34,745 bases of DNA, from the IMG/VR virus record IMGVR_UViG_3300023210_000004; one strand, given 5' to 3'. The position numbers and the translations under genes were made by a program. The stretch comes from a virus. Positions 1 to 34,745 of the stretch are shown here, one piece after another (the stretch's first letter is position 1; each line of letters starts with the position of its first letter). The notes under the pieces are model-generated. The model made no database searches, was not told where the DNA came from, and saw only the letters and a program-made list of their open reading frames with translations.

Positions 1-480
1 TAGGCCTTGGCAATGTGGCCACGCTGACCACAGGAGTGAGCAACGGCAATGTAATTGTAGCGGATGCAACTGGCCTTCCTGCTATCGATGGAAGTCAGCT
101 CACAGGAATCACTTCGACCGACTCAACTAAGCTCGCTATAGCTAACAACTTAAGCGACTTGAACAATGCAGTCACAGCGAGAACAAACTTAGGCCTTGGC
201 AATGTGGCCACGCTGACCACAGGAGTGAGCAACGGCAATGTAATTGTAGCGGATGCAACTGGCCTTCCTGCTATCGATGGAAGTCAGCTCACAGGAATCA
301 CTTCGACCGACTCAACTAAGCTCGCCATTGCTAACAACTTGAGCGATCTAAACAATGCAGTCACAGCAAGAACAAACTTAGGCCTTGGCAATGTCGCTAC
401 TCTTACGACAGGAGTGGCCAATGGCAACGTGATTGTAGCGGATGCAACGGGCCTTCCTGCCATCGATGGGAGCCAACTCT
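1..480 (+). repeat. Distal end of the 189-bp tandem coding repeat array (units start at 1, 190 and 379; the last unit is truncated)
   Basis: TAGGCCTTGGCAATG recurs at exactly 189-nt spacing. The unit at 1..189 is identical to those at 33854 and 34421. Confidence 0.95.
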
Positions 481-785
481 TAAACCTTCCAAGTGGTGGT
501 GGTGGTGGTGGCGGTGGCTTTACTTATTCAGCGATAACAAGTCTGGTCACTGCACAAGCTGAATATTATTACAGCTGTGATGGAACATTTACAGTTACAT
601 TGCCTGCTGCTTCAGGTATCACCGCAGGCAAAGAGATTAGAATAAAAAATATGGGAACAGGTACGATCACAATCGCTCGGTCTTCAACAGACACAATTGA
701 TGGTCAAACAAGCGCCGCTCTCGGTGTTCAGTATCAGATGCTAAGCTTTATCTCAAATGGTGTCGACGGTTATGAGGTGATCTAA
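1..785 (+). CDS. Tail fibre protein, 3' part. It continues 32053..34745 across the circular junction. Codon phase starts at nt 3 and the stop is TAA 783..785.
   Basis: nt 1..136 are identical to 34610..34745. The phase of the frame opened at 32053 matches the phase of the listed ORF 15..785. The region holds 63-aa repeats, then a Gly8 tract, then a beta-rich C-terminal tip (FTVTLPAASGITAGKEIRIKNMGTGTITI...). Confidence 0.8.
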   Translation, partial: GLGNVATLTTGVSNGNVIVADATGLPAIDGSQLTGITSTDSTKLAIANNLSDLNNAVTARTNLGLGNVATLTTGVSNGNVIVADATGLPAIDGSQLTGITSTDSTKLAIANNLSDLNNAVTARTNLGLGNVATLTTGVANGNVIVADATGLPAIDGSQLLNLPSGGGGGGGGFTYSAITSLVTAQAEYYYSCDGTFTVTLPAASGITAGKEIRIKNMGTGTITIARSSTDTIDGQTSAALGVQYQMLSFISNGVDGYEVI

Positions 786-1213: not shown

Positions 1214-1222
1214 GGAGTAAGA

Positions 1223-1663: not shown

Positions 1664-1664
1664 A

Positions 1665-2908: not shown

Positions 2909-2909
2909 T

Positions 2910-3203
2910 ATGGATATGAACGCTCTTGATGTCGGAACTGTGATGGCCATTCTCGGAATCATCTTCAAGACGAGCCAGGACAAAGCTAGTTCAGCGGAAT
3001 CTCTTGGAAAGATGAAGCAACAGATTAAATCACTTGAAACAAGAATGGCCGCCAGTGATTCAAAGCTTAACGAGATTGATCAAAAGTTGGGGAAGCTAAT
3101 AGCCAGTATGACTCGACTTGAAACATTACTCGGTCAATCAAACATTCCTAGCGTATTAGAGACACCAGGGCCGCTCAAGAGTCAGCATTGGCAGTCAAGC
3201 TGA
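2910..3203 (+). CDS. Small membrane protein with an N-terminal TM segment and a coiled coil (i-spanin-like or holin-like architecture, uncertain)
   Basis: VGTVMAILGIIFK is followed by heptad-like KMKQQIKSLETRMAASDSKLNEIDQKLGKLIASMTRLETLL. The 3' end overlaps the convergent gene by 29 nt. Confidence 0.45.
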   Translation: MDMNALDVGTVMAILGIIFKTSQDKASSAESLGKMKQQIKSLETRMAASDSKLNEIDQKLGKLIASMTRLETLLGQSNIPSVLETPGPLKSQHWQSS

Positions 3204-4299
3204 TAAGGCCATGGTATCTTGACCAGTCATTCTTCTTCATATATCGAAGCGCTTTCCTGACTTCAGCAAGTGTATTCAATGAGACATCTTTAACATGATT
3301 ATTGATGAAGTTGCTATGTCTCAAGACTTCAACATAAGCAGGATCATTTAAGCGAGGGCCATAGATAGCAGGCGGGCACTCTTCTAGTATTGGATATTCA
3401 GCTACGAAAGCATTGTGTTGAGCTTCAATACTCTCTTGAATATCAGTCATCCACCATTCATCAACATATCCCCATGATTGGCGGATGACTCTATGAATGA
3501 TAGAAGAATAAAAAAAATCCTCTAGTTCTCTTGGTGTCATATCTGACAAGTCTAAACGCTTTCGATCAATCACACCTTGGACTTCTTCTTCACTGATATT
3601 GTGCTCATCAACAATCTCCCAAAACATCTCTTCACTTGAGAAAGTATAGAGCGGTTCACTCTTTGGTTTTGGTGGCGCTTGCTTGACTGGTGCTTGCTTG
3701 ACTGGTGCTTTACTCGGTCGCTGTTGGCGTTGTGGCGCTTCTTTCAAGTTCAAGTCTTCACCAAGTGATTCAGCTGATATCCTCGCTCTTTCATCATCAC
3801 TCATGTTTGTATTATCTGCGATCTCATCAGCTGAATAGATACCGCTAACAGCATCGGGATAAGTAGCTCTTAGGCCCATTGTCATACATCGGCTTCTTAA
3901 CATTTGGAGCGGCATAGTCTGCCAGTTCCTATTCCTAGTTAAGCCTTGAGCGCCTGCCATCTCCATCGTGTAAACATACTCATGTTTGATCTCCTTTGGC
4001 TCATCCTTTCGAGCGAAGATGATTCTACATAGTTGAGCGTTCCATTCTACAATCTGCCAATACCTAACGAGTCCAGAGTTGCGACAGATTCCCGCCATTG
4101 CATCAGCGCTTAATGATGGCTTACCCTTAAGACAGTAAGATTGAGTTTGAACCTTACCCATATCACCACCGAAGTGATGACCATGAGCGGCATGACATTT
4201 AAGAAGGTCGCGGGGGTTACGCTCATCAAGAAGAGTGGCAATCTCTTTGGCTTGATCAAGGTTAGCGGGCACGTAGATTGATTTATATATAGCATTCAT
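3175..4299 (-). CDS. Single-strand annealing recombinase (Red-beta/RecT-like) with a long C-terminal extension
   Basis: NWQTMPLQMLRSRCMTMGLRATYPDAVSGIYSADE closely mirrors the lambda Bet segment PWQSHPKRMLRHKAMIQCARLAFGFAGIYDKDE. An APVKQAPVKQAPPKP linker is followed by about 170 further residues. Confidence 0.65.
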   Translation of the reverse strand: MNAIYKSIYVPANLDQAKEIATLLDERNPRDLLKCHAAHGHHFGGDMGKVQTQSYCLKGKPSLSADAMAGICRNSGLVRYWQIVEWNAQLCRIIFARKDEPKEIKHEYVYTMEMAGAQGLTRNRNWQTMPLQMLRSRCMTMGLRATYPDAVSGIYSADEIADNTNMSDDERARISAESLGEDLNLKEAPQRQQRPSKAPVKQAPVKQAPPKPKSEPLYTFSSEEMFWEIVDEHNISEEEVQGVIDRKRLDLSDMTPRELEDFFYSSIIHRVIRQSWGYVDEWWMTDIQESIEAQHNAFVAEYPILEECPPAIYGPRLNDPAYVEVLRHSNFINNHVKDVSLNTLAEVRKALRYMKKNDWSRYHGLISLTANADS

Positions 4300-4327
4300 G
4301 TCAGTTTTCCTTTGTCAGTTTATTAGT
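4296..4327 (-). repeat. 32-nt leader element ACTAATAAACTGACAAAGGAAAACTGACATGA (read on the - strand), identical to 7745..7776 on the + strand
   Basis: Perfect 32/32 identity by direct comparison. It covers the upstream stop codon, the SD and the ATG of the annealing-protein gene. Confidence 0.9.
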
Positions 4328-4874
4328 TGATATTCATGTCAAGAAGGTCGGGAAGTTCTCGATAAGATCGGGCCGCTTTAAGACTTCGTTCCCAATCTGT
4401 CGAGTGAAGATCACACCAGGTTCTCACTTCATTATATCGAGCGGGATAAGATGAGTTAGTTAGTTGATGTACTTGGTAAGGTGAGAGTGTATCAATGACT
4501 CTGTTTGCACATTCATCGGCGGGCAAGTAGCCTCCATAATCTTTCAAGAGCGCCACCGCTGTGATGACGAATATGAATAAGCAAACGCCAATGGATAGGT
4601 CTTGTGCAATTTGTTCGTCTGGTATCATGTCAGTTCCCTTGCTTATGTTTATATTGTTTGCGAGTTCATAGTGCATTGCCACACATCGAGCGTTTAACAT
4701 TTGGCGTGAGTGAGACACCCAGGAGCCTTCTTTGTCTAGCTGTCTGTTGAGTTCATCTTCATATTGATCAACGTCATCTTGATCATCATTGTCATCATTG
4801 TCAGCTTGATCAGTGTCTTGTTTAGCTTTCTCTCTTAAGTACTCCATCCATGCATCAATACTATCAAACTTCAT
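4323..4874 (-). CDS. Hypothetical protein with an acidic N-terminus and one hydrophobic segment
   Basis: 183-aa ORF in the leftward operon. DNDDNDDQDD tract, TM-like LSIGVCLFIFVITAVALL. An internal in-frame ATG (4628..4626) carries the conserved early initiation motif. Confidence 0.55.
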   Translation of the reverse strand: MKFDSIDAWMEYLREKAKQDTDQADNDDNDDQDDVDQYEDELNRQLDKEGSWVSHSRQMLNARCVAMHYELANNINISKGTDMIPDEQIAQDLSIGVCLFIFVITAVALLKDYGGYLPADECANRVIDTLSPYQVHQLTNSSYPARYNEVRTWCDLHSTDWERSLKAARSYRELPDLLDMNIN

Positions 4875-5244
4875 CAGTAAGTCTCTTTGCTTTTATTAGT
4901 TTAACAATCTCTCTTTTCTGTTCAGTGGTGGCTTGCTCAAGACATAGCAATACTTTGTAAACAAACATAAAGCTTGTTTCGAGTTCTTTAGCGATGTGAT
5001 GGCAAAGGTCATTGATCACCTGGTCAAAGGCTTCATCTTCACCAGTGAAATCACTTTCATGAAAAGCTTCTTCTTCACCATAGAGAATATTTGCACACTC
5101 AGCCAAACGAGTCGCCAGCTCATGACTTGGCGTGTCTTTATTGTTTATGATCTTACTCAAGTAAACAGGATGACAAGCGCTCATCTCGGCAAGCGCTGAA
5201 AGCTTCACCCTTGTCTTTAGTTTCTTCTTCATCAGTCGCCTCAT
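4864..5244 (-). CDS. HTH (XRE/Cro-like) transcriptional regulator, first gene of the leftward operon
   Basis: VKLSALAEMSACHPVYLSKIINNKDTPSHELATRLAE fits the helix-turn-helix pattern. The gene faces the divergent control region. AGGAACTGACATG initiation motif. Confidence 0.6.
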   Translation of the reverse strand: MRRLMKKKLKTRVKLSALAEMSACHPVYLSKIINNKDTPSHELATRLAECANILYGEEEAFHESDFTGEDEAFDQVINDLCHHIAKELETSFMFVYKVLLCLEQATTEQKREIVKLIKAKRLTDEV

Positions 5245-5273
5245 GTCAGTTCCTTTCGTTAGGTATGCTTAAG

Positions 5274-5302
5274 TTATTAATGCCTTATGAAGCTCATGTC
5301 AA
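5274..5302 (-). promoter_or_regulatory. Candidate leftward early promoter: TTGACA, 17-nt spacer, TAATAA
   Basis: The - strand reads TTGACAtgagcttcataaggcatTAATAA, about 30 nt upstream of the HTH gene start. The -35 is perfect and the -10 is mediocre. Confidence 0.4.
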
Positions 5303-5358
5303 GAAAACTTAATATTAAATATAATAAATATTCTTATTGTTAAGTTTAATAAATAAGA

Positions 5359-5371
5359 GTACAACTTGTAC
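5359..5371. promoter_or_regulatory. Perfect 13-bp palindrome GTACAAcTTGTAC, candidate operator
   Basis: Read directly. It lies 27 nt upstream of the initiator ATG in the divergent intergenic region, and its right arm runs into GTACACC, which is an iteron half-site. Confidence 0.35.
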
Positions 5372-5397
5372 ACCTCTATATATAAAGGAGAACTGAC

Positions 5398-6000
5398 ATG
5401 AACGAGGGACAACTAACAGATAAGGTCATGGAGCGGCGTGATCTGCCACCGATGGCCAAGGTGATCATGAGAGCAATCATCAGACGAGTTGATTGGAAAA
5501 CATGGACAAGTAAAGAAGGTCACAAAGTCGTATCAACTAGAGAGCTCGCTCTTAAGTGTGGCACTACTAAGAAGACGGTCATTAAGAACATGGCTCGACT
5601 TGAGCAGGCTGGATTGATTCAGCGTGACTTCTTTAAGGCGAAACCAACACAAGCGCCACCAGTTCAAGTGTTGGTTGATAACATCTCAAACTATAATGGA
5701 GGTGTAGAAAGTACACCACAGGGGGGTGTAGAAAGTATACCACCTAGAGGTGTAGAAAGTATACCGCCTATGGTGGAGAAAGTACACCAGGGTGGTATAG
5801 AAAGTATACCACCTAGAGGTGTAGAAAGTATACCACTATCAATAAGGGACAATAGTAATACAATAATTAATACAATAAATTATACTACTGCCATTGACCC
5901 ATCGCTAGGAAGTGAGTGGGGTGTTAGCTCTAAAGAACTTTGGGGAGATGAGCTTGTTAATGGATTGAGTATTGTATCGAGTAAAGGGAAGAGCAAATGA
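5398..6000 (+). CDS. Replication initiator: winged-helix N-terminal domain, with the origin embedded in the coding sequence (lambda O-like arrangement)
   Basis: STRELALKCGTTKKTVIKNMARLEQAGLIQRD has an HTH pattern. Peptide repeats GGVESIPPR are encoded by the DNA iterons. A DnaC-like loader gene follows with an overlapping stop/start (ATGA). Confidence 0.6.
   Translation: MNEGQLTDKVMERRDLPPMAKVIMRAIIRRVDWKTWTSKEGHKVVSTRELALKCGTTKKTVIKNMARLEQAGLIQRDFFKAKPTQAPPVQVLVDNISNYNGGVESTPQGGVESIPPRGVESIPPMVEKVHQGGIESIPPRGVESIPLSIRDNSNTIINTINYTTAIDPSLGSEWGVSSKELWGDELVNGLSIVSSKGKSK
5701..5834. repeat. Six iterons, each an inverted repeat GGTGTA-GAAAG-TA(C/T)ACC; putative origin of replication
   Basis: Copies at 5701-5717, 5725-5741, 5749-5765, 5772-5788, 5794-5810 and 5818-5834, with a centre-to-centre spacing of 22-24 nt. 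Confidence 0.75.
5838..5893. promoter_or_regulatory. AT-rich block directly after the iterons (candidate DNA-unwinding element)
   Basis: atcaataagggacaatagtaatacaataattaatacaataaattatactact is markedly AT-rich compared with the flanks. Confidence 0.5.
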
Positions 6001-6923
6001 AGCGTTTAGGAGATGAAGTTGAAAAGATCACTTTCTATTTAGAAGAGTTGAAGAGAGTACGAAACGAGATACCAGCCACTCAAAAGCAAAAAAGAGTCTA
6101 TGAAGACTTTCGTCATTTGAATCACTCGAACCTTGAAGAGCATGACTGGGTGCTTTCACAAACTGCATACTTTAAAACAAAAGAAATCCCATACTGCGGC
6201 CGATGTGGAGAAGGCTTTATCTATTCTGTTGATGAGAATAGAAATAGGACAGCAAAGGTTTGTGACTATTGTGAGCGACCAAGAAGACGTTTAAAGCGTT
6301 TAAATGACTTACAGCTTCCTAAAGATGCCGAGGGCATGCACTTAGATCTTTATGAATGGGACAGTCAAGAGCAGTTTGAAAGAGTCAATGCTTTGGTCGA
6401 GTGGATGAACCTTACCAAGGAAGAGCGAGGTAAAGCAGTTTCTCCAAGTATTTATTTATGGGGATCGCCAGGCAATGGCAAAACATCAATACTCTATGCG
6501 CTCGCAAAATATGCAACGTTCAATGATCACAAAGTACACTTCACTTCACATACTCAGTTGATCGATCGAATCAAACGAACATTCAATGGCAAAGATGATA
6601 ATCCTCTTGAGCAGTGGTTAAGCCAAATCAACCTTTTGCTCTTTGATGAGTTCGGCGGGATTGGTGGAAGAGCTAATATGACAGACTGGTTTAAAAGCAT
6701 CACCGTAGATATTATACAAAGAATGTATGAGAGATGGGCGGCGGGTGAGCTCGCTATTGTCATGACAACTAATCTGACTCCTGAAGATCTATTCACTAAA
6801 GCACTCGACCAGAACAGAGCAAGCGCATCAAGGCTTCAAGCAATGTTCAAGCGACCTATCCATATGAAGGGCCATGACAGAAGAGCAGATAAGAAGGAAT
6901 TAACTTATTGGGGAGTGAGATAA
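5997..6923 (+). CDS. DnaC/IstB-like AAA+ helicase loader with an N-terminal zinc ribbon
   Basis: Walker A GSPGNGKTS, Walker B LLLFDEFG, and CGRCGEG...CDYCERP (CxxC...CxxC). Confidence 0.7.
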   Translation: MKRLGDEVEKITFYLEELKRVRNEIPATQKQKRVYEDFRHLNHSNLEEHDWVLSQTAYFKTKEIPYCGRCGEGFIYSVDENRNRTAKVCDYCERPRRRLKRLNDLQLPKDAEGMHLDLYEWDSQEQFERVNALVEWMNLTKEERGKAVSPSIYLWGSPGNGKTSILYALAKYATFNDHKVHFTSHTQLIDRIKRTFNGKDDNPLEQWLSQINLLLFDEFGGIGGRANMTDWFKSITVDIIQRMYERWAAGELAIVMTTNLTPEDLFTKALDQNRASASRLQAMFKRPIHMKGHDRRADKKELTYWGVR

Positions 6924-10619: not shown

Positions 10620-11982
10620 CATCAAGCTAAATGAACTTCAACTAAACATCATCAGCGCTATCTCAAGACGAGATACGATAATTGCGGCGAGGTGTGGATG
10701 GGGTAGCGGTAAGACTTCAGCGCTTGTATTCTCCATCTTATTCTTGAGCAAGACAAGACCTGGCACGTCGTCACTATTAGTCACTGATACTACTCCAAGA
10801 TACAACTCTGTTTTAATGCCAGAGATGGAGAAGTGGCTGAATCCTCTTGGATGGACTTACAACCACACGCTTAAAAGATGGACTGATACAAACAACGGTT
10901 CAAGCGTTTGGTGTCGGTCGTATTATCGACCAGGCACAAGAGAAGCGACTCACAATCCACTGGAAGGATTGAATGTGACAAGTGGAGTCTGCTTGATCGA
11001 TGAATGTCAAACGCTCAATCAAGAGGTAGCTCACAAAGCTCTTGGTCGATTAAGAGCTGGGCCAAGTCCAATCTTGATTCTGGTTGGCCTGCCTGTGGTT
11101 GATGCGTGGTGGGTCAATATGTCAGAGAAGCAAGGACTAATCCCGCTCTTGTTCTCAAGCTATGTCAACCAAGACAATCTCGCTGATGAGTGGTTTGAAG
11201 CAACCAAGATGCTTCCACCTGATGAACGTGAAGCCATGATTATGAACAAGCCAAAACCACCGAGCGGATTGATCTACTCTGAGTTTACAGAAGCAAGTCA
11301 TGTTATCGATGGTTGGAGTTATAGAGAGAGCATGACTGGCAGGATTGCCATTGATTGGGGATTCAGGAAACCAAGTGTATTGATCATTTGCTATGATGAG
11401 CAACTTGAAGCATCCGTCATTTGTCATGAGATCAATCCAAGAGAAGTTACCACCGACCAACTAACAACTTTAATACTCGCCATTGCTTGGCCAAGGTCAC
11501 AGCGAGACAAAGCACCAGGGCCTAGAATATGGCTAGATGTTGGAGTGGCTGACAAGGCGGGCAAGGCTCGCAATGATCAAACAGGCCATTCAACTTTTAA
11601 GGTGATGAGACAAGACCCACCAAGAGGTCTTGGACTTCCTTTGAGATATGCTCTTGATCCTGTCAAGATTGATGTGCTCAACGGTATTCAAAGATTAAAG
11701 CGAGCGTTTAATGAGAAGCGGTATCTACTCACCAAGACGCTATGGGACAAAGGCGAAAGATCAGCGGGCAATAGTTTAAGGAAAGCACTTCTCTCTTACG
11801 GATGGGATAACAAAGAGCAGCCCAAGAAGGATGGCCGAGAAGACCCGCTTGACGCTCTTCGATATGACTGCATAACTTTTAACTGGAATGATAGTGCAGT
11901 AGATAAGAAGTACACACCACGCCGCCAAGGTGGCGGTAATAGAAAAGTTAAAGTTGGCGGATCAAAGGCAAGGAACTTTTAA
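10612..11982 (+). CDS. terL: Terminase large subunit
   Basis: Walker A CGWGSGKTS, Walker B-like VCLIDECQ. 456 aa, with a C-terminal nuclease-like region (IAIDWGF, DPLDALRYD). Its position is next to the head genes. Confidence 0.85.
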   Translation: MTDIKLNELQLNIISAISRRDTIIAARCGWGSGKTSALVFSILFLSKTRPGTSSLLVTDTTPRYNSVLMPEMEKWLNPLGWTYNHTLKRWTDTNNGSSVWCRSYYRPGTREATHNPLEGLNVTSGVCLIDECQTLNQEVAHKALGRLRAGPSPILILVGLPVVDAWWVNMSEKQGLIPLLFSSYVNQDNLADEWFEATKMLPPDEREAMIMNKPKPPSGLIYSEFTEASHVIDGWSYRESMTGRIAIDWGFRKPSVLIICYDEQLEASVICHEINPREVTTDQLTTLILAIAWPRSQRDKAPGPRIWLDVGVADKAGKARNDQTGHSTFKVMRQDPPRGLGLPLRYALDPVKIDVLNGIQRLKRAFNEKRYLLTKTLWDKGERSAGNSLRKALLSYGWDNKEQPKKDGREDPLDALRYDCITFNWNDSAVDKKYTPRRQGGGNRKVKVGGSKARNF

Positions 11983-12659
11983 TGAGAATAAATGTATACG
12001 ATGATAATATTGGTCATGTTCTATTGGTCGATAATATGGGTAATGACCTAAGAGCGGTTGAAAGTGCTAGAGTTAGTTTTCTACTCGACAGCTTAGACCA
12101 CACTGAACCAACTGACAGAGATAAGCGTTTACTTAAGTTCTTACTGAAAGAGGGCCATACTAGTCCTTTCGAGCATAGCGTGATCACCTTTCGTCTTCAC
12201 GTTCCTTTGTTTGTCAGGTCGCAAATTATGAGGCATAGAACCTTTTCTTATAATGAAGTATCAAGGCGATATACTAGCGAAGAACTTCAAGCGTTTATCC
12301 CTTCAACACTGAGAGCACAATCAAAGAAAAATCTACAATGCAGTGATGGCGAACTTGAAAACCATGACGTTCCACTTAAGAGAATGACTGAACACATTAA
12401 TGCTTCGCTCGCTTTATATAATCGTTTACTTGATACAGGTGTGGCAAGAGAACAAGCGAGAGCCATCTTGCCTCAAGCGATGTACACCACATTTTGGATG
12501 ACTGGTAACCTCCATAACTGGCTCAAGTTCTTTCGACTTCGTACCACTGATCACGCTCAAGAAGAGACTCGCCTAGTTGCTTTAGCTATCCAAGATATAA
12601 TGATGAAGCTATATCCAACCACGTTTGACATACTTAAACAGCTGAATGATCAAGAATAA
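11982..12659 (+). CDS. thyX: FAD-dependent thymidylate synthase ThyX
   Basis: The ThyX signature RHRxxSxxxxSxR is present as MRHRTFSYNEVSRRY. SPFEH motif. About 225 aa. Confidence 0.9.
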   Translation: MRINVYDDNIGHVLLVDNMGNDLRAVESARVSFLLDSLDHTEPTDRDKRLLKFLLKEGHTSPFEHSVITFRLHVPLFVRSQIMRHRTFSYNEVSRRYTSEELQAFIPSTLRAQSKKNLQCSDGELENHDVPLKRMTEHINASLALYNRLLDTGVAREQARAILPQAMYTTFWMTGNLHNWLKFFRLRTTDHAQEETRLVALAIQDIMMKLYPTTFDILKQLNDQE

Positions 12660-13101
12660 ACATATTAAAGTTAGGCTTGCTCAATGTGACTTAATCGCTA
12701 GCCTGTCCCCTTGCCCAAGACGCAAGGTGGGAGCATTGATCATTGATCCATCAACTAACGTTATTATAAGTGAAGGATATAATGGGACACCAAGAGGTTC
12801 AAAAGATCAGCTATGTGGTGGCGATGTATGCGAGCGAGAAGCTAAACACATTATAAGCGGATCACAGAATGATCTTGGCTGTCATCATGCTGAACTTAAC
12901 GCTATACTTAATGCCACCAGGACAGGCAACTCAACACTTGATAAGTGGATCATGACCAATTGCGATCCTTGTTTAATGTGCGCTAAAGCTATCCATCACG
13001 CTGGCATTGTTAAGGTCTACTGTCCAACATTAGCCAAAGGCGATCATCAAGAAGGCCTAACTTATCTTATTAAGAATGGCGTGACTCTTATATCTATTTG
13101 A
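12646..13101 (+). CDS. dCMP deaminase (cytidine/deoxycytidylate deaminase zinc-binding fold)
   Basis: CHHAELNAI (HAE) and PCLMCAKAI (PCxxC) zinc ligands. GYNGTPRG is typical of the dCMP deaminase/ComEB group. Confidence 0.85.
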   Translation: MIKNKHIKVRLAQCDLIASLSPCPRRKVGALIIDPSTNVIISEGYNGTPRGSKDQLCGGDVCEREAKHIISGSQNDLGCHHAELNAILNATRTGNSTLDKWIMTNCDPCLMCAKAIHHAGIVKVYCPTLAKGDHQEGLTYLIKNGVTLISI

Positions 13102-13367: not shown

Positions 13368-14792
13368 ATGAATCAAGACCGCAAATATGAGCGTTCTCCT
13401 AAACATATGAGAGCACTTTCACCACGATTCACCACCAAGGGTATTACAGGAACTCAAATAAGCGGTGGAGTGATCACAGGTAAAGAGAAGAACGCTTCTC
13501 TCACTGGTTTAAATTGGGTTGAAGAAGCTGAAGAAATGCTTAGAACTGATCCAATAGTTCGCCGATCTTGGCATATGTTGAGACAAACTTTATTAAGTGC
13601 TAGCTGGCGCTTCATGCCTGGCATTGAGAATGATCCTGTCGCTGATGAGCTCGCTCGATATGCAAATGAAGCATTTGGTTTCGATGGTTATAGCGGACAG
13701 ATGACCATGTCTTGGGAAGATCAACTTTGCTATCTATTCGAGTTTATCCCATTGGGTTATCGATACGCTGAAGAGATCTATAAAGTAGGGCCTGACAGCC
13801 AAGGCAAAATCAAAGTGTGGCTTGATAGCTATGCTGACAGAGAACCAAGCGCCCATAGTCGATGGTTGAGCCGAGACAGTCAACGGCTTGATGGTGTTAT
13901 GCAAAACACAGTGGGTACAACTTACACACCCGAACCAATACCAGCCAACAAACTACTACTGTTGACACTCAATAGGACAGGTTCAAACTTTGAAGGTGTC
14001 GGAATGTTGAGGCCTGTTTGGTGGTGGTGGCGAACTAAACAGCGAGTGAGCAACTTAATGTGTGTTGGTCTTGATCGATGGGCCATACCTACTCCAAAAG
14101 TCACAGTGAACCGAAGTGAAGCGGAGGCAATGGGTCTTAGTGATGGCGATATCGACGCTATGGTTGATGATGCCGAGGCGCAAGCTCAAAGCTTTCTCGC
14201 CGCTGAGCAATCTTATCTTGTAGAAAATGCAGCGGTGAAGTTCTCATCTTATGAGACTTCTCCATATCTTTATAGTCAAGGCCCGCTTGACATTATTAAG
14301 CTCGCAGATTCACAGATCGCCGCTTCATTCTTGACTCAGTTTGCAGATCTTGGAAACACTGAGACAGGATCAAGAAGCGTTGGCGAGATACATCTTAGTG
14401 TCTTCAGAAGAGCGGCCATCAATCTATGTGACCTTGTCGCTACTCAAGTGAGCGGAGTTGATAGAAGAGGCGGTGGCACGATAGGCCGTTTGATCCGTTG
14501 GAACTATGGCTTGGTTGATCCATCCAAACTTCCAAAGCTAACACATACAGGTCTTGATACTGATGATCTAGCTGAGTCACTCGGAATGTTACCTGGTCTA
14601 GTTCAAGCGGGGTTACTTACTCCTGATGATGAACTAGAGCGAGCGATAAGAGAACGGCTTGGAGCGGGTGACCTGCCAGAAGATGCTCAACGTTCAGCAC
14701 TTGAGCGGACTAGTTCAATCGGGAGCGGTGGCGCTATGTCTTCATTGACTGAACAACTTATCAAAAGGAGGCGAGCAAATGGCAAAGATTAG
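13368..14792 (+). CDS. Portal protein
   Basis: 474 aa and the first gene of the head module, followed by protease/scaffold, decoration and capsid genes. AAGGGA SD. The assignment is by size and synteny, and Mu-type neighbours suggest a Mu gp29-like portal. Confidence 0.65.
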   Translation: MNQDRKYERSPKHMRALSPRFTTKGITGTQISGGVITGKEKNASLTGLNWVEEAEEMLRTDPIVRRSWHMLRQTLLSASWRFMPGIENDPVADELARYANEAFGFDGYSGQMTMSWEDQLCYLFEFIPLGYRYAEEIYKVGPDSQGKIKVWLDSYADREPSAHSRWLSRDSQRLDGVMQNTVGTTYTPEPIPANKLLLLTLNRTGSNFEGVGMLRPVWWWWRTKQRVSNLMCVGLDRWAIPTPKVTVNRSEAEAMGLSDGDIDAMVDDAEAQAQSFLAAEQSYLVENAAVKFSSYETSPYLYSQGPLDIIKLADSQIAASFLTQFADLGNTETGSRSVGEIHLSVFRRAAINLCDLVATQVSGVDRRGGGTIGRLIRWNYGLVDPSKLPKLTHTGLDTDDLAESLGMLPGLVQAGLLTPDDELERAIRERLGAGDLPEDAQRSALERTSSIGSGGAMSSLTEQLIKRRRANGKD

Positions 14793-16029
14793 AGTTAAGC
14801 GCAAGAAGCAAAAGGCAAAACCACAACCAAAGCCTATGATCAAAAGTCTTAGGGCCTATGGTGAGGCGGTTCAACTTACTTCACTTAATGAGCCATCTTA
14901 TGACATCCCCGAAGGACTAACAGTGGGTAAGTCATTTAAAACTTTGGCCCTTGGTCAAGTGTCATCAAGAATGAGCGGGGATAATATCGGTGATGAGATT
15001 GATGGTGATCTTCTTGAAGAGATGGTCAGAGTCTTTAACACTCGAAAATATAATGATCCTGTCATCATCGATTGGCAACACGCAACTAGTCCTTTTCAAG
15101 GTGGATCGCCAGCGCCGCCCGAAAGCGGAAACGCTCTTGGCTTGATTGTTGATCTTGATATTAGAGAAGACGGACTCTATGCAACTCCCGCCTATAATGA
15201 GCGAGGCCTTGACGTGGTCAAGTCAGCGGGCGGTCTTCTTTGGTCTTCACCTGAGTTTCTCAATGGCGAAGTCTATTCAAGAGATGGCGGATCAAAGATC
15301 GGAAACGCTCAACTTTTAGCAATTACACTTACTCCCCGACCTGCTCAGTCACACGACAAAATCGAGCGGGTTACTTTAAACGAAAGGACAACTTTGATGG
15401 ATAACATTGAAGAGATGCCTGTTGAAGAACTCCGCCAAATGCTTATCGCAAAAGATGCAATGGTGGCAGAACTTGAGCAGAAAATACAAGAGATGACTCT
15501 TGAAGCAGAAGCTTCCATGAATACAGAAGCAGACGACAAAGAAGAGACTGAAGCAATGGCCGAAGACTCGACCGACTCGGACAAAGAAGAAGAAGAGAAA
15601 GAAGAGCTTAAGGCTGAGAAGCTTAGTGAAAAGCTCACTGACTCTATCTTGCTCAGTGAAGTCAAAACACTTCGTGAGAAAGTCGCCAAGATTGAAGCTG
15701 AGAAGGCTGAGATTGAAAAGACAAATGCAGTCAATGCGCTACTCAATGAAGGCAAGATTGCACCAAGTGAGACTAACGTGGCTGGTAAAGCTTACGAGCT
15801 CAAAGATCTTCAAGCTGAGTTTTGGCAAATGTTCAATGAGAGACAAGCCAACAGCGCTGTGCCTCTTGTCGAAGTTGGTCATGGCGCAAGCGGTGAAGAG
15901 ATCAATAAGAACAGTCTTGATGAGAAGATTCGTGAGATGTCTCGTGAGAAATCAATCACTTACTCAGAAGCTCTAAACTATTTTCAAAAGAATGAAACTG
16001 ACTACTACACCAAGGCAATGGAGAAATAA
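14779..16029 (+). CDS. Head maturation protease / scaffold fusion (Mu gpI-like N-terminal domain, acidic coiled-coil C-terminal half)
   Basis: The VIIDWQHATS segment resembles the conserved DxxH block of Mu-like prophage protein I. The C-terminal half is Glu/Lys-rich coiled coil (EAEKAEIEK...). An internal in-frame ATG at 15397 has AAAGGA upstream. Confidence 0.55.
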   Translation: MAKIRVKRKKQKAKPQPKPMIKSLRAYGEAVQLTSLNEPSYDIPEGLTVGKSFKTLALGQVSSRMSGDNIGDEIDGDLLEEMVRVFNTRKYNDPVIIDWQHATSPFQGGSPAPPESGNALGLIVDLDIREDGLYATPAYNERGLDVVKSAGGLLWSSPEFLNGEVYSRDGGSKIGNAQLLAITLTPRPAQSHDKIERVTLNERTTLMDNIEEMPVEELRQMLIAKDAMVAELEQKIQEMTLEAEASMNTEADDKEETEAMAEDSTDSDKEEEEKEELKAEKLSEKLTDSILLSEVKTLREKVAKIEAEKAEIEKTNAVNALLNEGKIAPSETNVAGKAYELKDLQAEFWQMFNERQANSAVPLVEVGHGASGEEINKNSLDEKIREMSREKSITYSEALNYFQKNETDYYTKAMEK

Positions 16030-16031
16030 TC

Positions 16032-16421
16032 ATGCCATTAAATAATACGATTCAAACATTCATTGCAGGCGGTGCAATCACTGAGTTTGCTCTAGTGTCC
16101 CAAGATGCGGCGGGCAAAGTACAAATTACAGCTGTTGGAACTGATAAAGCTTGCGTGGGTATTGCTCAAAGAGCAGTTGCTTCGGGTGACGCTGTTGAAG
16201 TTGTGACCGCTGGATTAAGCAAAGTAATCGCTGGCGGTGCAATCACAGCGGCAACCGATCCAAGATTAAAAGCTGTCACAGGCACTACTGGCAAAGTTGA
16301 GACAGTTGCAACTGGTGACTTTGCAGTTTGTCGCATGATCTCAAACACTAATCAATTTACCGCCGCAGACGGTGACCAGATCTTGGTTATGTTTGTTGGC
16401 CCGACCGTTGTAGAACCTTAA
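16032..16421 (+). CDS. Head decoration / capsid cement protein (DUF2190-like)
   Basis: 129 aa, Gly/Ala/Val-rich, with repeated AGGAIT and GDAVEVV-type strands. It lies directly upstream of the major capsid gene, as D does relative to E in lambda. Confidence 0.6.
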   Translation: MPLNNTIQTFIAGGAITEFALVSQDAAGKVQITAVGTDKACVGIAQRAVASGDAVEVVTAGLSKVIAGGAITAATDPRLKAVTGTTGKVETVATGDFAVCRMISNTNQFTAADGDQILVMFVGPTVVEP

Positions 16422-16432
16422 GGAGATAAACC

Positions 16433-17434
16433 ATGGCTTCATCATATAGCAATCTACATCCAGTAGACGAAATCTTAACTAGTCTTGTAGGCGAGGCAGT
16501 CCCTAGCGACAACCAATTAATCGCTGATAAGGTCTTTGAAAACATCACGATTCCTCAAAGAAGTGGAACTCTTTTACTAGAGGAGTCACGAAACTTTACA
16601 GGAGCGGCGGCAGGCCTTGACATTCAAAGAGCACCAGGCGCTTCTCGCGTGACAATTGGTGGTTTTGATCGCTCAAGTCAAACATACATGGCTCATCCGT
16701 ACGGTGTTCGAGAAGCAATCGCCATGCTAGACATCCGAGATAGTCAATATCCTGGCAGTGAAGAGGCTCGTATGGCCAAGAAGATCGCAAGAGCGGTTAA
16801 GCTTGCACGAGAGAAACGAGCAGCTGATCTTCTATTTGGGACAACTAATTTCTCAGACAGTAATTGTACCGCTGAATTTGGCGGCAAATGGAATGTTGCT
16901 GGGGCTGAACCTTTGTCTGATTTGCATGAGCTTAAAGATACGGTCTTTGCTGCCGCTCATGGTATCAATCCTGACTCTTTAGTGATGGGTCGTGAAGTGT
17001 TTCGCCAGCTTGCTCGCAATCCCGAGGTGCGTGGGTATGTTGGAAGCTCATCGGCAGGTATCGCAAGCGGTAATCGCATCTTAAATGATGAGGCGGTTCT
17101 TGAGGTGCTTCGTGATGTTCTTGGTATTCCAAATGTCTATGTTGGACAAGCTCGACAAGATACCGCCGTCCCAGGTGCGACCGCTAATGAAAGTTACATT
17201 TGGACAGGTGACAGCTTGTTCATGGGTATCCTTCATGGATCGGATGCTATTGTACAAAAGAGCGGTAATGTCAAAGGAATGCCAGTGGCGGCTCTTAATC
17301 TTCAATATCAGCCAATTGAATCGGGCCAATGGGACTCTAATGACGGTATAAGAAGATATGTATGGGCGGAGGAAATTAACGTATTCCATGCCGTTGATTC
17401 AACACTAGGCTACATCATCACAGACTGTCTATAA
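16433..17434 (+). CDS. Major capsid protein (HK97 fold, lambda gpE-like size class)
   Basis: 333 aa, the strongest SD in the module (TAAGGAG), and a position after the scaffold and decoration genes. Confidence 0.75.
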   Translation: MASSYSNLHPVDEILTSLVGEAVPSDNQLIADKVFENITIPQRSGTLLLEESRNFTGAAAGLDIQRAPGASRVTIGGFDRSSQTYMAHPYGVREAIAMLDIRDSQYPGSEEARMAKKIARAVKLAREKRAADLLFGTTNFSDSNCTAEFGGKWNVAGAEPLSDLHELKDTVFAAAHGINPDSLVMGREVFRQLARNPEVRGYVGSSSAGIASGNRILNDEAVLEVLRDVLGIPNVYVGQARQDTAVPGATANESYIWTGDSLFMGILHGSDAIVQKSGNVKGMPVAALNLQYQPIESGQWDSNDGIRRYVWAEEINVFHAVDSTLGYIITDCL

Positions 17435-30600: not shown

Positions 30601-30790
30601 AGGCCTCACGATTCAAAGCATAAGTACAAACACTGTTACCTTCACTGGTGCACATGGCATAAGTGCAAGCGGTGGCACACTTGAATCAACTACTTATGCA
30701 AACGCCAGCGCAACTCACAGACTCGATGCATATTTAGCAAATGCTTCAAATGTGATAAACTCAAATGTAACAGCACAGGAGTTCAGTTGA
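27692..30790 (+). CDS. Large tail tip / central fibre protein (host-specificity gpJ-like role)
   Basis: 1032 aa, the largest single-copy structural protein, and the last of the tip cluster. Overlapping ATGA start. Confidence 0.5.
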   Translation: MTISREHGRRVFALQVAGLEYRYHSTTPPSSTNLDSTVATTINYVDREGIISVGAFSASVDPSGGVGQYSPLSVTLQIDKRANSGDPGVIFGRCGIRSATTKAQLTESINRSDIIIKVGTDLTSLSYPRLMHIGGETLRIASAISTRIFATSGRGVGGTTPQGHSIDLEGSIVPEVTTEITTFRGRKAKLFGAHQYPDGSVSDYVEVMNGFIEQSPTIEEGDTISLSIVPLTALIDTDLTDKINQTRLLQGYHYYDGRYGSVLEYALALNVDEYSNPPILTTDTTAPITASTFQLTVISNRGFQNLLDDFDTSLAAGAAKDDFIHEHPRYPRLRRSQDDRLENDSVYATTTTYNSSLPGYVINADSSPSDALTAVEITATDQFILNLPRHEIKRHSLGNAEVKQWPNVINDTLESSGPSNTQGASGGFARWRINADNIIRVSKLSASPFAAELQLWSHSYQFRARQRVLVESGNARACRHWSDSGTDLALDDLSRLSYPIDIAGETSTNPNEYYDSPRGAGQLALITSNNRRVNASYQLRDLAKAYYQLYESVILVENSLGLPTSATANTTFDVIIMYYDRSTETTKRQPFKVTHETTATFDGSDVGILLHVDDTSEFSQLVSFADWTDSERVLIFRGSSFIEERPGQALLKLLESGGGDQINGTYDTLGLGLNINSADIDEESFLAMDTACPFLLSDQFAGDGSDLKGIFDNLLKLMGAVLVMKRDSSTGKSRISLQPVGSERAADASATILAGDWLTDPAPHWDIYEDIVTQIKYEFDYSPEEDSYLSEVIFNNQEAINRYGGESSKITLTLPGVSSEQFGRNAGDNFSYFLPSSDRLFNLLSNPLRAWRGSIGTGPSAFLDVGSYVKVSSPHLRGYGDSYGVVDGVGMIRAINQELMSEGCELEILTTGLSPVAWNATAQVASIPTSTTVIVSEDEFSGSSVDDVSFFQAGDVVDYLPLGDHDNAITGLTIQSISTNTVTFTGAHGISASGGTLESTTYANASATHRLDAYLANASNVINSNVTAQEFS

Positions 30791-31455
30791 TGCCAACCAA
30801 AGCAGACCTTGAAAACAAAATAAACGATCTAAAACATGACATTAGAAGGCTCGAAAGAATCTTAAATCAAGCTCGTCTTGAGATTGCAGATCTTCCATCC
30901 ATTGCTTTTCTACCGCCACAACTAGCGCCACATCTTGACCCCAAATCAAGAGGCGCAATCAATCGAGCACGTCAAGAACTTGATAGCGTTGTGATTGATC
31001 CTTGTGAGCGAATCAATACATACATTAAAAGCATGGAGGGGATCGGGTGGACTTGGGAAAGTGACTACATAAAGAATGGTCAGTTTGCCTGGTGTGGCGC
31101 TTTCGCTGCTTTCTGTTATACAACTGTGAGCTTTCCAATACGTCAAAAGATCTTCCCTTCTTGCTATCGGATGTACAAAGCATGGTCACAATCATCAAGA
31201 CGTATCGAGCCCGCCAAGGTTTCACCAGGTGATATAGTTGTGGTCTTCACTTCAAAGCGATCAATGCAGGGTGATCACATTGCGCTTTGTATTGATGCTT
31301 CAACAGTGGGAGAAGGCTACATCACAACCATTGAAGGCAATGCTCATGGTGAGCTTGGTAATGGTGATCAAGGTGAAGGTGTCATCACTCGACAAAGAAC
31401 ACTCAATGAGTTTGCTCACGTCTATAGATTACTAAGTAGTGACTTCGATGAATGA
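30790..31455 (+). CDS. CHAP/NlpC-P60-type peptidoglycan hydrolase with an N-terminal coiled coil (endolysin or tail-associated lysin)
   Basis: Catalytic Cys context GQFAWCGAFAAFCY, His context GDHIALC, and the TIEGN motif typical of CHAP-type amidases/peptidases. The N-terminus DLENKINDLKHDIRRLERILNQARLEI is coiled coil. ATG 30790 overlaps the upstream TGA. Confidence 0.7.
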   Translation: MPTKADLENKINDLKHDIRRLERILNQARLEIADLPSIAFLPPQLAPHLDPKSRGAINRARQELDSVVIDPCERINTYIKSMEGIGWTWESDYIKNGQFAWCGAFAAFCYTTVSFPIRQKIFPSCYRMYKAWSQSSRRIEPAKVSPGDIVVVFTSKRSMQGDHIALCIDASTVGEGYITTIEGNAHGELGNGDQGEGVITRQRTLNEFAHVYRLLSSDFDE

Positions 31456-32052: not shown

Positions 32053-34745
32053 ATGGCTATTAAAACAGATACATTCACAGGCGGAGGCGGTGGCGGTGGC
32101 GGTGGTGCTGTCACTTCAGTCAATACGCAGACAGGCGCAGTCGTATTAAGCGGAAACGACCTTGTCGCAGATCATACCGCCGTCAACTATACCGCAGCAA
32201 ACGCTAATGTTGATGGTCACTTCTCAGGTATTGATACAAAGCTTGGCACGATTGCAAGCGGGTTAACATACAAGGGAGCGTTCAACGCAACAGCGGGGAC
32301 TCCATCGATTGCAAATGCTTTGCAAGGTGACCTTTATATCATCGACACAGCGGGGACAATCTATGGCCAAACATGGGCAATAGGTGACCATCTTTTAATT
32401 AATGCTGATATGGGCGGTTCAATCACTAATTCAAAGATTGATAAGATTGATAACACTGAACCAACTAATGTCTTAATCACTACTAACAACTTAAGTGATC
32501 TTGATAATGCTACGACAGCAAGAACAAACTTAGGCCTTGGCAATGTGGCCACGCTTGACACAGGTGTGGCCAACGGCAACGTAATCATTGCGGATGCCAC
32601 TGGTCTTCCTGTGATTGATGGTAGCCAATTGACAGGAATCACAGCGACTGACTCAACTAAGCTTGCCATTGCTAACAACTTGAGCGATCTAAACAACGCT
32701 ACGACAGCAAGAACAAACCTAGGTCTAGGCAATGTGGCGACACTCGACACAGGTGTGGCCAACGGCAACGTAATCATTGCGGATGCCACTGGTCTTCCTG
32801 TGATTGATGGTAGCCAATTGACAGGAATCACAGCGACTGACTCAACTAAGCTTGCCATTGCTAACAACTTAAGCGATCTAAACAACGCTACGACAGCGAG
32901 AACCAACTTAGGCCTTGGCAATGTGGCCACGCTGACCACAGGAGTGAGCAACGGCAATGTAATTGTAGCGGATGCAACTGGCCTTCCTGCTATCGATGGA
33001 AGTCAGCTCACAGGAATCACTTCGACTGATTCAACTAAGCTCGCTATCTTGAACAACTTAAGCGATCTAAACAACGCTACGACAGCGAGAACAAACTTAG
33101 GCCTTGGTAATGTCGCTACTCTTACAACTGGGGTTGCTAACGGTAACGTGATTGTAGCGGATGCAACTGGCCTTCCTGCTATCGATGGTTCACAGCTGAC
33201 AGGGATCACTTCGACCGACTCAACTAAGCTCGCCATCTTGAACAACTTAAGCGATCTAAATAATGCAGGCACAGCGAGAACAAACTTAGGCCTTGGCAAT
33301 GTCGCTACTCTTACGACAGGAGTGGCCAATGGCAACGTGATTGTAGCGGATGCAACGGGCCTTCCTGCCATCGATGGAAGTCAGCTCACAGGAATCACTT
33401 CGACTGATTCAACTAAGCTCGCTATCTTGAACAACTTAAGCGATCTAAACAACGCTACGACAGCGAGAACAAACTTAGGTTTAGGCAATGTGGCTACTCT
33501 TACGACAGGAGTGGCCAATGGCAACGTGATTGTAGCGGATGCAACGGGCCTTCCTGCTATCGATGGAAGTCAGCTCACAGGAATCACTTCGACCGACTCA
33601 ACTAAGCTCGCTATAGCTAACAACTTAAGCGACTTGAACAATGCAGTCACAGCGAGAACAAACTTAGGTTTAGGCAATGTGGCCACGCTGACCACAGGAG
33701 TGAGCAACGGTAACGTGATTGTAGCGGATGTAACGGGCTTGCCTGCCATCGATGGAAGTCAGCTCACAGGAATCACTTCGACTGACTCAACCAAGCTCGC
33801 CATCTTGAATAACTTGAGCGACCTGAATAATGCCACAACGTCAAGAACCAACTTAGGCCTTGGCAATGTGGCCACGCTGACCACAGGAGTGAGCAACGGC
33901 AATGTAATTGTAGCGGATGCAACTGGCCTTCCTGCTATCGATGGAAGTCAGCTCACAGGAATCACTTCGACCGACTCAACTAAGCTCGCTATAGCTAACA
34001 ACTTAAGCGACTTGAACAATGCAGTCACAGCGAGAACAAACTTAGGTTTAGGCAATGTGGCCACGCTGACCACAGGAGTGAGCAACGGTAACGTGATTGT
34101 AGCGGATGTAACGGGCTTGCCTGCCATCGATGGAAGTCAGCTCACAGGAATCACTTCGACTGACTCAACCAAGCTCGCCATCTTGAATAACTTGAGCGAC
34201 CTGAATAATGCCACAACGTCAAGAACCAACTTAGGCCTTGGCAATGTGGCCACGCTGACCACAGGAGTGAGCAACGGCAATGTAATTGTAGCGGATGCAA
34301 CTGGCCTTCCTGCTATCGATGGAAGTCAGCTCACAGGAATCACTTCGACCGACTCAACCAAGCTCGCCATCTTGAATAACTTGAGCGACCTGAATAATGC
34401 CACAACGTCAAGAACCAACTTAGGCCTTGGCAATGTGGCCACGCTGACCACAGGAGTGAGCAACGGCAATGTAATTGTAGCGGATGCAACTGGCCTTCCT
34501 GCTATCGATGGAAGTCAGCTCACAGGAATCACTTCGACCGACTCAACTAAGCTCGCTATAGCTAACAACTTAAGCGACTTGAACAATGCAGTCACAGCGA
34601 GAACAAACTTAGGCCTTGGCAATGTGGCCACGCTGACCACAGGAGTGAGCAACGGCAATGTAATTGTAGCGGATGCAACTGGCCTTCCTGCTATCGATGG
34701 AAGTCAGCTCACAGGAATCACTTCGACCGACTCAACTAAGCTCGC
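32053..34745 (+). CDS. Tail fibre protein, 5' part. The frame is open to the window end and continues at nt 1/137..785. The full length is about 1113 aa.
   Basis: AAGGAG lies 7 nt upstream of ATG 32053, and my manual translation found no stop through the N-terminal domain and the first repeats. The N-terminus reads MAIKTDTFTG9AVTSVNTQTGAVVLSGNDL... YKGAFNATAGTPS...GDLYII...GDHLLI, which are motifs common in phage fibres, followed by 63-aa repeats. It is absent from the ORF track only because it has no stop inside the window. Confidence 0.85.
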   Translation, partial: MAIKTDTFTGGGGGGGGGAVTSVNTQTGAVVLSGNDLVADHTAVNYTAANANVDGHFSGIDTKLGTIASGLTYKGAFNATAGTPSIANALQGDLYIIDTAGTIYGQTWAIGDHLLINADMGGSITNSKIDKIDNTEPTNVLITTNNLSDLDNATTARTNLGLGNVATLDTGVANGNVIIADATGLPVIDGSQLTGITATDSTKLAIANNLSDLNNATTARTNLGLGNVATLDTGVANGNVIIADATGLPVIDGSQLTGITATDSTKLAIANNLSDLNNATTARTNLGLGNVATLTTGVSNGNVIVADATGLPAIDGSQLTGITSTDSTKLAILNNLSDLNNATTARTNLGLGNVATLTTGVANGNVIVADATGLPAIDGSQLTGITSTDSTKLAILNNLSDLNNAGTARTNLGLGNVATLTTGVANGNVIVADATGLPAIDGSQLTGITSTDSTKLAILNNLSDLNNATTARTNLGLGNVATLTTGVANGNVIVADATGLPAIDGSQLTGITSTDSTKLAIANNLSDLNNAVTARTNLGLGNVATLTTGVSNGNVIVADVTGLPAIDGSQLTGITSTDSTKLAILNNLSDLNNATTSRTNLGLGNVATLTTGVSNGNVIVADATGLPAIDGSQLTGITSTDSTKLAIANNLSDLNNAVTARTNLGLGNVATLTTGVSNGNVIVADVTGLPAIDGSQLTGITSTDSTKLAILNNLSDLNNATTSRTNLGLGNVATLTTGVSNGNVIVADATGLPAIDGSQLTGITSTDSTKLAILNNLSDLNNATTSRTNLGLGNVATLTTGVSNGNVIVADATGLPAIDGSQLTGITSTDSTKLAIANNLSDLNNAVTARTNLGLGNVATLTTGVSNGNVIVADATGLPAIDGSQLTGITSTDSTKL
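32482..34745 (+). repeat. Tandem 189-bp coding repeat array (about 12 units here; it continues at 1..480)
   Basis: Unit boundaries lie at 32531, 32720, 32909, 33098, 33287, 33476, 33665, 33854, 34043, 34232, 34421 and 34610, all exactly 189 nt apart. Confidence 0.95.

Follow-up and report, generated by a model that had tools for sequence, protein, structure and literature searches.

Tail fibres of phages are modular and recombining proteins, and adenovirus serotypes differ in the number of pseudo-repeats in their fibre, which determines how long the shaft is. The short tail fibre gp92 of Pakpunavirus P7-1 (PDB 9zd7) is a slender trimer of ~410 Å x 25 Å; it is 92-99.6 % conserved across the genus, and length variation was not reported (bioRxiv 10.1101/2025.11.26.690771). 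Vp260 of PBCV-1 (A122/123R; chain P22 of PDB 8h2i) is a homotrimeric virion fibre attached to the capsid (PMC9617893). On bacterial surfaces, the Periscope Proteins SasG, Aap, Rib, and Sgo_0707 consist of tandem modules encoded by highly identical DNA, and the repeat number sets the projection of a terminal binding domain (PMC8201768). Here, we analyzed a gene with a long tandem array on the virus record IMGVR_UViG_3300023210_000004 of IMG/VR; this whole stretch of 34,745 nucleotides (nt) is called the window. We consider it likely that the gene encodes the tail fibre of an uncultured marine tailed phage of ~34.5 kb, whose assembly was opened within this gene, and that the modular shaft of the fibre evolves by in-frame exchange of units.

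Tandem Repeats Finder detected a period of 189 nt at positions 32485-34745 (12.0 copies, 88 % matches, 0 % indels, score 2974) and a further 2.5 copies of the same period at positions 1-469 (93 % matches, 0 % indels). The head-to-tail array proposed in a sequence-only reading of the window was thereby recovered, free of gaps and with a period of 63 codons. Units were numbered 0-13, with starts at 32530, 32719, 32908, 33097, 33286, 33475, 33664, 33853, 34042, 34231, 34420, 34609, 189, and 378; this register lies one base before that of the earlier reading. Units 7, 10, and 11 were identical (0/189 differences), and unit 6 was fully identical to unit 8. Unit 9 was a chimera, with positions 1-128 of the unit 7 type and positions 121-189 of the unit 6 type. 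All these identities and chimeras had been described correctly before. Furthermore, unit 2 was composed of unit 7 (positions 1-119) and unit 4 (positions 85-189), unit 5 equalled unit 7 over positions 73-189, and unit 12 did so up to position 137. Exact repeats of 434 nt (at 33547 and 33925, offset 378) and of 329 nt (at 34417 and 34606) were present.

Units 0 and 1 differed by nine changes, all of them synonymous. From all other units they differed by 29-48 nt but by just 5-8 amino acids (aa), in agreement with the earlier claim of mainly synonymous divergence. The alignment of units contained 68 variable columns, and 48 of these were third codon positions. For the ten distinct full units, the mean proportion of synonymous differences (pS) was 0.43 and that of nonsynonymous differences (pN) 0.053, giving a pN/pS of ~0.12; 54 of the 63 residues were invariant. 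These values show that strong purifying selection acts on the module at the protein level. The mosaic units and the mostly synonymous divergence therefore identify the 5' part of the array (units 0-5) as old, its protein similarity being kept by selection, and the 3' part (units 6-12) as young, originating from recent duplication and exchange.

Copy number was compared among relatives. An N-terminus of 94-98 % identity was found in proteins of 358, 622, 653, 781, and 869 aa carrying 2 to 9 full units, and a further allele with the same N-terminus was 730 aa long. Behind this N-terminus the alleles formed a series of 2, ~4, 9, and 12-13 full units, the last being that of the window; in some alleles other domains were inserted between units. 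Additionally, a complete open reading frame (ORF) of 524 aa, represented by its protein sequence only, was located in fibre position after an identical upstream gene. Contig L001 (P0121; JGI 3300027996) was 93-100 % identical to the window across 6.7 kb upstream and contained nine full units. Window units 0, 2, 3, 4, and 5 were found there in the same order as units 0-4, with 0-3 nt difference, and unit 1 was missing; past these shared units L001 carried different 3' units, a different tip, and unrelated downstream ORFs. Contig L046 (ENA ERZ27250271) showed 0/1200 nt mismatches downstream and the same tip as the window. Its array read unit 5 (identical to that of the window), one novel unit, unit 13, and tip; the window has 6-7 units where L046 has one. 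The comparison of both contigs with the window thus places exchange points inside the array.

Copy number hence differs between near-identical genomes (9 in L001 versus 12-13; 1 in L046 versus 6-7), the count of the window being uncertain. Together with the allele series, these differences agree with the earlier proposal of a mosaic array changing by gain, loss, and conversion of modules. By its tandem array of in-frame modules, whose copies are highly identical in DNA, the fibre resembles variable-number tandem-repeat ("periscope-like") surface proteins. Two variants of the fibre locus occurred within one sample, JGI 3300027996, namely L001 (nine units, other tip) and L047, which bears the window-type tip and downstream genes; they are an indirect hint at length heterogeneity within a population.

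The tip was replaced en bloc together with three small downstream ORFs in close relatives (window 519-2150; L001 8400-9647; L002 7260-10125), and homology of L002 and L003 to the window resumed at 2163. From these alignments, the exchanged cassette consists of the distal fibre and the three small ORFs, extending to about window position 2150. The small ORFs had no Pfam match; that at 785-1213 gave just a weak match to phrog_21944 (E 4.9e-4), a family whose function is not known. Their products may be tip-specific chaperones or adhesins. The units would supply the homology for such swapping of tips.

The period of exactly 63 codons and the long identical tracts between neighbours mean that exchange changes whole modules in frame. 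Out-of-register homologous exchange or slippage between units would thus add, remove, or recombine whole modules, and the RecT-like protein of the phage could be a candidate promoter of this exchange. A diversity-generating retroelement was considered and rejected: no reverse transcriptase was seen among the annotated ORFs, and the variation concerns whole modules, not targeted adenines. Two reverse-strand ORFs were noticed within the array (32361-32957, 198 aa; 33003-33371, 122 aa); neither was retained as a gene, the stop-free nature of the repeat being their most likely origin.

The identity of the gene was examined by family searches. The N-terminal region with three units matched the tail-fibre families phrog_2282 (E 1.7e-19) and phrog_16641 (E 5.4e-14), and the C-terminal part matched phrog_16641 and phrog_4209; one named PHROG match was other than tail fibre, namely phrog_158 (major tail protein). 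Matches obtained by tblastn in 109 GenBank phage records fell under genes mostly annotated as tail fibre. Sequence matches in the PDB were PBCV-1 P22/Vp260 (8h2i chain cU; E 2.3e-14 when the protein was the query and 1.2e-9 for the unit profile), P7-1 gp92 (E 1.3e-9), and the SU10 tail fibre (E 0.033); the match to Vp260 was weak per module (7-16 bits), with a large composition-bias correction. The gene is the last of the virion module: a run of ORFs on the same strand leads up to 32053, an ORF for a 1032-aa protein and a CHAP-like protein precede it, and portal, protease, and major capsid protein are encoded upstream at 13368-17434. Gene order around the fibre was the same in L001 and L002. 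The tail-fibre assignment of the sequence-only reading is supported by these results, and the motif LSDLxNxxxARxNLGLG, which it had called familiar, indeed recurs in solved and annotated tail fibres.

The two ends of the window overlapped: its final 136 nt were exactly identical to its first 136 nt, and so were the last 325 nt to the first 325 nt. A direct join of 34745 to 1 breaks the frame and leads to a stop after 940 aa with a nonsense end. Removal of the 136-nt overlap yielded an ORF of 1113 aa (ATG 32053, stop 783-785) with 13 full units and a 34-aa partial unit; removal of the 325-nt overlap yielded 1050 aa with 12 full units. The 1113-aa frame proposed earlier is thus obtained with the shorter overlap, but not as the sole closure. 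Frame breaks within the array were absent, as joining via either overlap gives one ORF. In L001 and L002 the fibre gene was continuous with its downstream genes, which supports the assignment of the N- and C-terminal parts to one gene. In L002 the fibre gene was followed by a variable stretch and then by homology to window 2163-6447, RecT gene included; by this link, the genome closes through the fibre gene. What looks like a direct terminal repeat of the contig belongs to the coding tandem array, and "complete circular" calls from terminal repeats as well as gene calls at such ends need care.

The features of the fibre gene and of related loci are listed in Table 1. An AlphaFold2 (AF2) monomer model gave a predicted local distance difference test score (pLDDT) of ~92 for a small β domain at aa 70-135 (nt 32260-32457) in the N-terminal region. 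The module joins the motif GN[VI]A..NGNV.A..G....GSQLTGIT to the widespread fibre motif NLSDLxNxxxARxNLGLG. The motif LNLPSGG recurs at boundaries of modules or domains in the alleles P0013, P0005, and P0122. Poly-Gly tracts made of GGN repeats lie on either side of the shaft: a Gly9 tract (aa 10-18, nt 32080-32106) forms an N-terminal hinge, accompanied by a conserved anchor region of ~140 aa, and a Gly8 tract (~495-518) precedes the tip. Orthologues that are otherwise 94-98 % identical have N-terminal tracts of G5 to G9, a second and smaller length polymorphism in the fibre gene.

Table 1. Coordinates of the fibre gene, its array, and associated features in the window
Feature	Position (nt)	Strand	Evidence or remark
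5' part of fibre gene: N-terminal region, units 0-10, first 137 nt of unit 11	32053..34745	+	runs off window end
N-terminal anchor, aa 1-159	32053..32529	+	94-98 % conserved among alleles with different arrays
Units 0-5, mutually divergent array part	32530..33663	+	pairwise differences 9-46 nt within window
Units 6-11, young array part	33664..34745	+	6=8, 7=10=11, 9 chimera of 7 and 6
Terminal overlap	34610..34745	+	identical to 1-136; 34421-34745 likewise identical to 1-325
3' part of fibre gene: rest of unit 11, unit 12 (189-377), partial unit 13, hinge, C-terminal domain	1..785	+	stop 783-785
Partial last unit 13, 34 aa, first half of module alone	378..479	+	translation
Hinge LNLPSGGGGGGGG, Gly-rich, shaft-tip junction	480..518	+	translation
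C-terminal all-β tip domain, ~88 aa (aa 1026-1113), and stop	519..785	+	AF2 pLDDT ~95
Three small ORFs downstream of fibre	785-1213, 1223-1663, 1665-2150	+	swapped with tip in relatives
RecT-family single-strand annealing protein	3175..4299	-	Pfam RecT E 1.8e-5, 24.8 bits vs cut-off 24

The model of the tip was compared with the PDB using Foldseek. The match to CBA120 TSP4 covered its residues 1-335 (E 2e-5) with a root-mean-square deviation (rmsd) of 2.1-2.8 Å over ~100 columns. Matches to 7rej, 7rfo, 7rfv, 5iv5_AC (T4 gp10), and 9f4b had a probability of 1.0 and an rmsd of 2.1-2.9 Å; furthermore, a baseplate protein of Klebsiella phage KP1 superposed on the predicted tip. In BFVD, 393 matches to the tip were obtained at E≤1e-3, many of them fibre proteins of uncultured phages. 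The C-terminal domain is hence predicted to have a T4 gp10/XD-like fold. Sequence identity between the tip and XD-type domains was 15-22 %, and there was no match to a Pfam family. We infer that the protein is a trimer.

The distribution of the module was determined in large sequence collections. Of 8000 candidates scored in a word-indexed search, 1068 proteins reached E≤1e-3; marine metagenomes (Tara, GOS, JGI, ENA) were the source of almost all of them. Full units numbered 0 to 9 in 196 retrieved proteins, and the window has more full units than any of these. Searching 1.84 billion representative proteins with the unit profile gave 531 proteins at E≤1e-3 and 26 at E≤1e-30; no representative had as many full-length units as the window. 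More distant matches spanned only unit positions 1-40 or only 36-63, which marks the unit as composed of two older motifs. In 185,579 species genomes, a single contig carried full units. In the literature, no papers were found that link the NLGLG string with a tail fiber, and no direct precedent was found for repeat number varying in tail fibres. The fibre had been called unusual, which agrees with its unit number exceeding that of the 196 homologues and of the 1.84-billion library; the claim is weakened, however, by the precedent of PBCV-1 Vp260 and by the under-counting of such genes in databases.

Several observations weigh against our interpretation. No Pfam family matched either part of the protein at E≤0.01, Phage_fiber_2 and collagen-like families included. 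The tail genes upstream of the fibre had no family match in Pfam or PHROG; placement on the tail and not at another virion site therefore rests on the annotation of homologues. In the AF2 monomer model of the N-terminal region and three units, the shaft reached a pLDDT of ~50 only. Such low confidence is expected because the fibre would fold only as a trimer. Foldseek matches of this model in the PDB all had E>1, and no shaft fold was taken from it. Assignment of a host through genomes was abandoned, as the single full-length unit match, a 7.3-kb contig binned with a Parvibaculum metagenome-assembled genome, is too weak to name one. Unit count and order were taken from the assembled contig alone, and unit types 6 and 9 were absent from every other sequence examined. 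Finally, the contig stops exactly at a branch point of the assembly graph within the array, and the 3' half of the array holds the exact repeats of 434 and 329 nt.

The last points lead to an alternative that is possible, though somewhat unlikely: gene and module are real, and the order and number of units 6-12 were made by the assembler, either by repeated traversal of a loop in the graph or by threading together alleles of co-occurring strains, in which case real molecules would carry fewer units, e.g., 7-10. The final base of the window is unit position 137, the last one before unit type 7 and unit 12 diverge (at position 138). Two in-frame closures exist, and the long exact repeats exceed usual k-mer and read lengths, whereas exact repeats within arrays that were fully assembled from other samples are ≤110 nt long. 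At least 11 independent contigs break at array edges (contigs considered: L009, L012, L045-L056). Of six contigs bearing the identical downstream gene, five begin at window 348-440; contigs with the identical upstream gene and any fibre ORF stop 64-261 aa into that ORF, and two IMG/VR contigs of 35-36 kb also end within their own arrays. A shorter allele with the same tip (L046) and the two variants in sample JGI 3300027996 point in the same direction.

Searches for the young units in further data gave no confirmation. A unit-6 37-mer had no match in metagenome_contigs or viral_contigs, a unit-7 58-mer had none in viral_contigs, and the peptide TTSRTN, checked as a marker for young units, was in none of the retrieved homologues. 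A unit-12 58-mer matched one contig, L057, which turned out to be a different relative and does not confirm unit 12. However, unit types and chimeric junctions can be defined within a short span (positions 120-129 in unit 9) and should therefore be supported by reads, and ten distinct full unit types require at least ten units if all are on one molecule. Both ends of the array are confirmed by independent contigs: on the left, five units among units 0-5, and on the right, the final ~30 nt of unit 12, then unit 13, and on into the tip. Arrays of nine full units assemble cleanly in relatives.

The number of 13-14 units given earlier could thus not be secured, because the contig ends at a graph branch and the exact repeats of the 3' half are without independent confirmation. 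The contig gives 12 or 13 full units and one partial unit; the identical type-7 units at the junction could number one, two, or more, which the contig cannot tell. Short-read assemblies break at such arrays almost every time, and databases therefore under-report genes with long arrays.

An improbable alternative holds that the modules are binding sites, e.g., for a repetitive host surface polysaccharide, and that copy number tunes avidity, not reach. The strong conservation of the module (54 of 63 residues, pN/pS ~0.12) and its retention despite other domains inserted between copies (P0013, P0005, P0122) would fit this idea, but a trimeric fibrous fold would equally predict strong conservation. 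Moreover, the NLSDL...ARxNLGL motif occurs in the thin shaft of P7-1 gp92, for which no ligand binding was reported, and Pfam revealed no match to a carbohydrate-binding family. That the protein is another virion appendage (head or neck fibre, whisker) is very unlikely: its closest solved relative by sequence is the capsid-attached Vp260, the top Foldseek row for the tip is a phage capsid spike (9ny6), and the upstream tail genes lack annotation, but 9ny6 superposes with an rmsd of 15 Å and the good superpositions are tailspike and baseplate proteins, the named PHROG matches are all tail fibres except phrog_158, and within the structural block the gene occupies the distal end, behind those for the 1032-aa and CHAP-like proteins.

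For a tail fibre with a shaft evolving by in-frame exchange, the modules would lengthen a thin trimeric shaft. If the rise per residue resembles that of gp92 (410 Å/499 aa), each module would add ~5 nm, and 13.5 modules would correspond to ~70 nm; shaft length would then influence how the tip reaches its receptor. Going further, the array might be a phage contingency locus through which a single population maintains fibres of several lengths, and so a viral analogue of the Periscope Proteins; we regard this extension as doubtful. Frequent expansion and contraction of the shaft, possibly aided by RecT, would allow some virions always to reach the receptor through host surface layers of varying thickness. 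The conserved units would serve as recombination linkers for swapping cassettes of tip and accessory genes, and the module would be shared with a giant-virus fibre. A change of shaft length by whole in-frame modules between nearly identical genomes is rarely documented, and no case was found in the literature searched. A real length series would amount to a set of natural isogenic variants with the same anchor and tip and one versus 6-7 intervening modules; these could serve to test fibre length against adsorption or host range in marine phages, and the module could be a building block for fibres of adjustable length.

The window is a phage genome; besides virion proteins and RecT, it encodes helix-turn-helix (HTH) regulators, a DnaC/IstB-like ATPase, ThyX, and a deoxycytidine monophosphate (dCMP) deaminase. 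GenBank phages gave no megablast match to 22 kb of the window, and the closest capsid proteins, those of Roseobacter phage CRP-6 and Vibrio phage VPHZ6, were 22-24 % identical. The genes for ThyX (E 3.5e-51) and dCMP deaminase (E 7.7e-20) adjoin at 11982-13101, just ahead of the portal gene at 13368. In the tail block, ORF 30787-31455 is CHAP-like (Pfam 21.7 bits, below the cut-off of 26) and matched PHROG endolysin families at E 1e-8; its product is possibly a virion-associated cell-wall hydrolase. In contig L045, a close relative, the AcrIF11 ADP-ribosyltransferase family was matched weakly by a 154-aa ORF at 4876-5340 (reverse strand) beside an HTH gene; this ORF is located in the early-region arm, which in the window ends at ~5244.

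The origin of lambda lies within gene O. In the window, six copies of the 19-nt site GGTGTAGAAAGTATACCAC were found at 5701-5836 with a spacing of 22-24 nt; the inverted pair GGTGTA/TACACC is part of every copy, and the number of copies expected by chance is zero. The copies are located inside ORF 5398-6000, which encodes an HTH domain and is directly followed by the DnaC/IstB-like ATPase gene (5997-6923). The array looks like a putative iteron-type replication origin within an initiator gene.

Compared with known systems, the fibre shares with gp92 the motif NLSDLxNxxxARxNLGL, which occurs in 5-6 repeats along the gp92 shaft. However, the gp92 motif recurs every ~31-35 aa in diverged copies, whereas here it forms half of a 63-aa composite module present in at least 12 copies, some of them identical in DNA. 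Vp260 is likewise built of tandem modules of 62-64 aa, at least 13 in number and in several cases identical, and the first ~38 residues of its module align with unit positions 4-41. It differs in being a capsid fibre of a eukaryotic virus and in having no NLSDL...ARxNLGLG in the second module half. Many near-identical fibre modules of ~63 aa therefore have a precedent, the homology being weak; no fold can be transferred, because only a ~4-nm segment of the Vp260 fibre is resolved. Judged by this alignment, marine phages may share a fibre module with a giant virus that infects algae.

The predicted fold of the tip matches the XD domains of T4 gp10 and CBA120 TSP4 (5iv5, 2fl8, 7rej, 7rfo; probability 1.0, E 2e-5 to 3e-4). 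These XD domains are N-terminal and particle-proximal, whereas the domain described here is at the distal C-terminus. XD-type domains of T4 gp10 and CBA120 TSP4 act as docking platforms; by analogy, the tip might be a docking platform for fibre or spike proteins, for which the joint exchange of tip and three ORFs is circumstantial evidence. In adenovirus, the repeats comprise 15 residues, form a triple β-spiral, and are diverged copies without a DNA-identical array. The BACON module arrays of phage tail proteins likewise consist of tandem modules from sequential duplication and horizontal module transfer, but have another fold; in the abstract that describes them, neither DNA-identical copies nor copy-number differences between near-identical genomes are mentioned. 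The Periscope Proteins resemble the fibre in their arrays of highly similar modules and in a repeat number that varies between strains. They differ as monomeric rods of folded domains in bacterial cell-wall proteins without sequence relation, and their class was defined from long-read genomes, whereas the data used here are assembled contigs only. By this analogy, the phage fibre appears to behave like a variable-number tandem-repeat or "periscope" protein.

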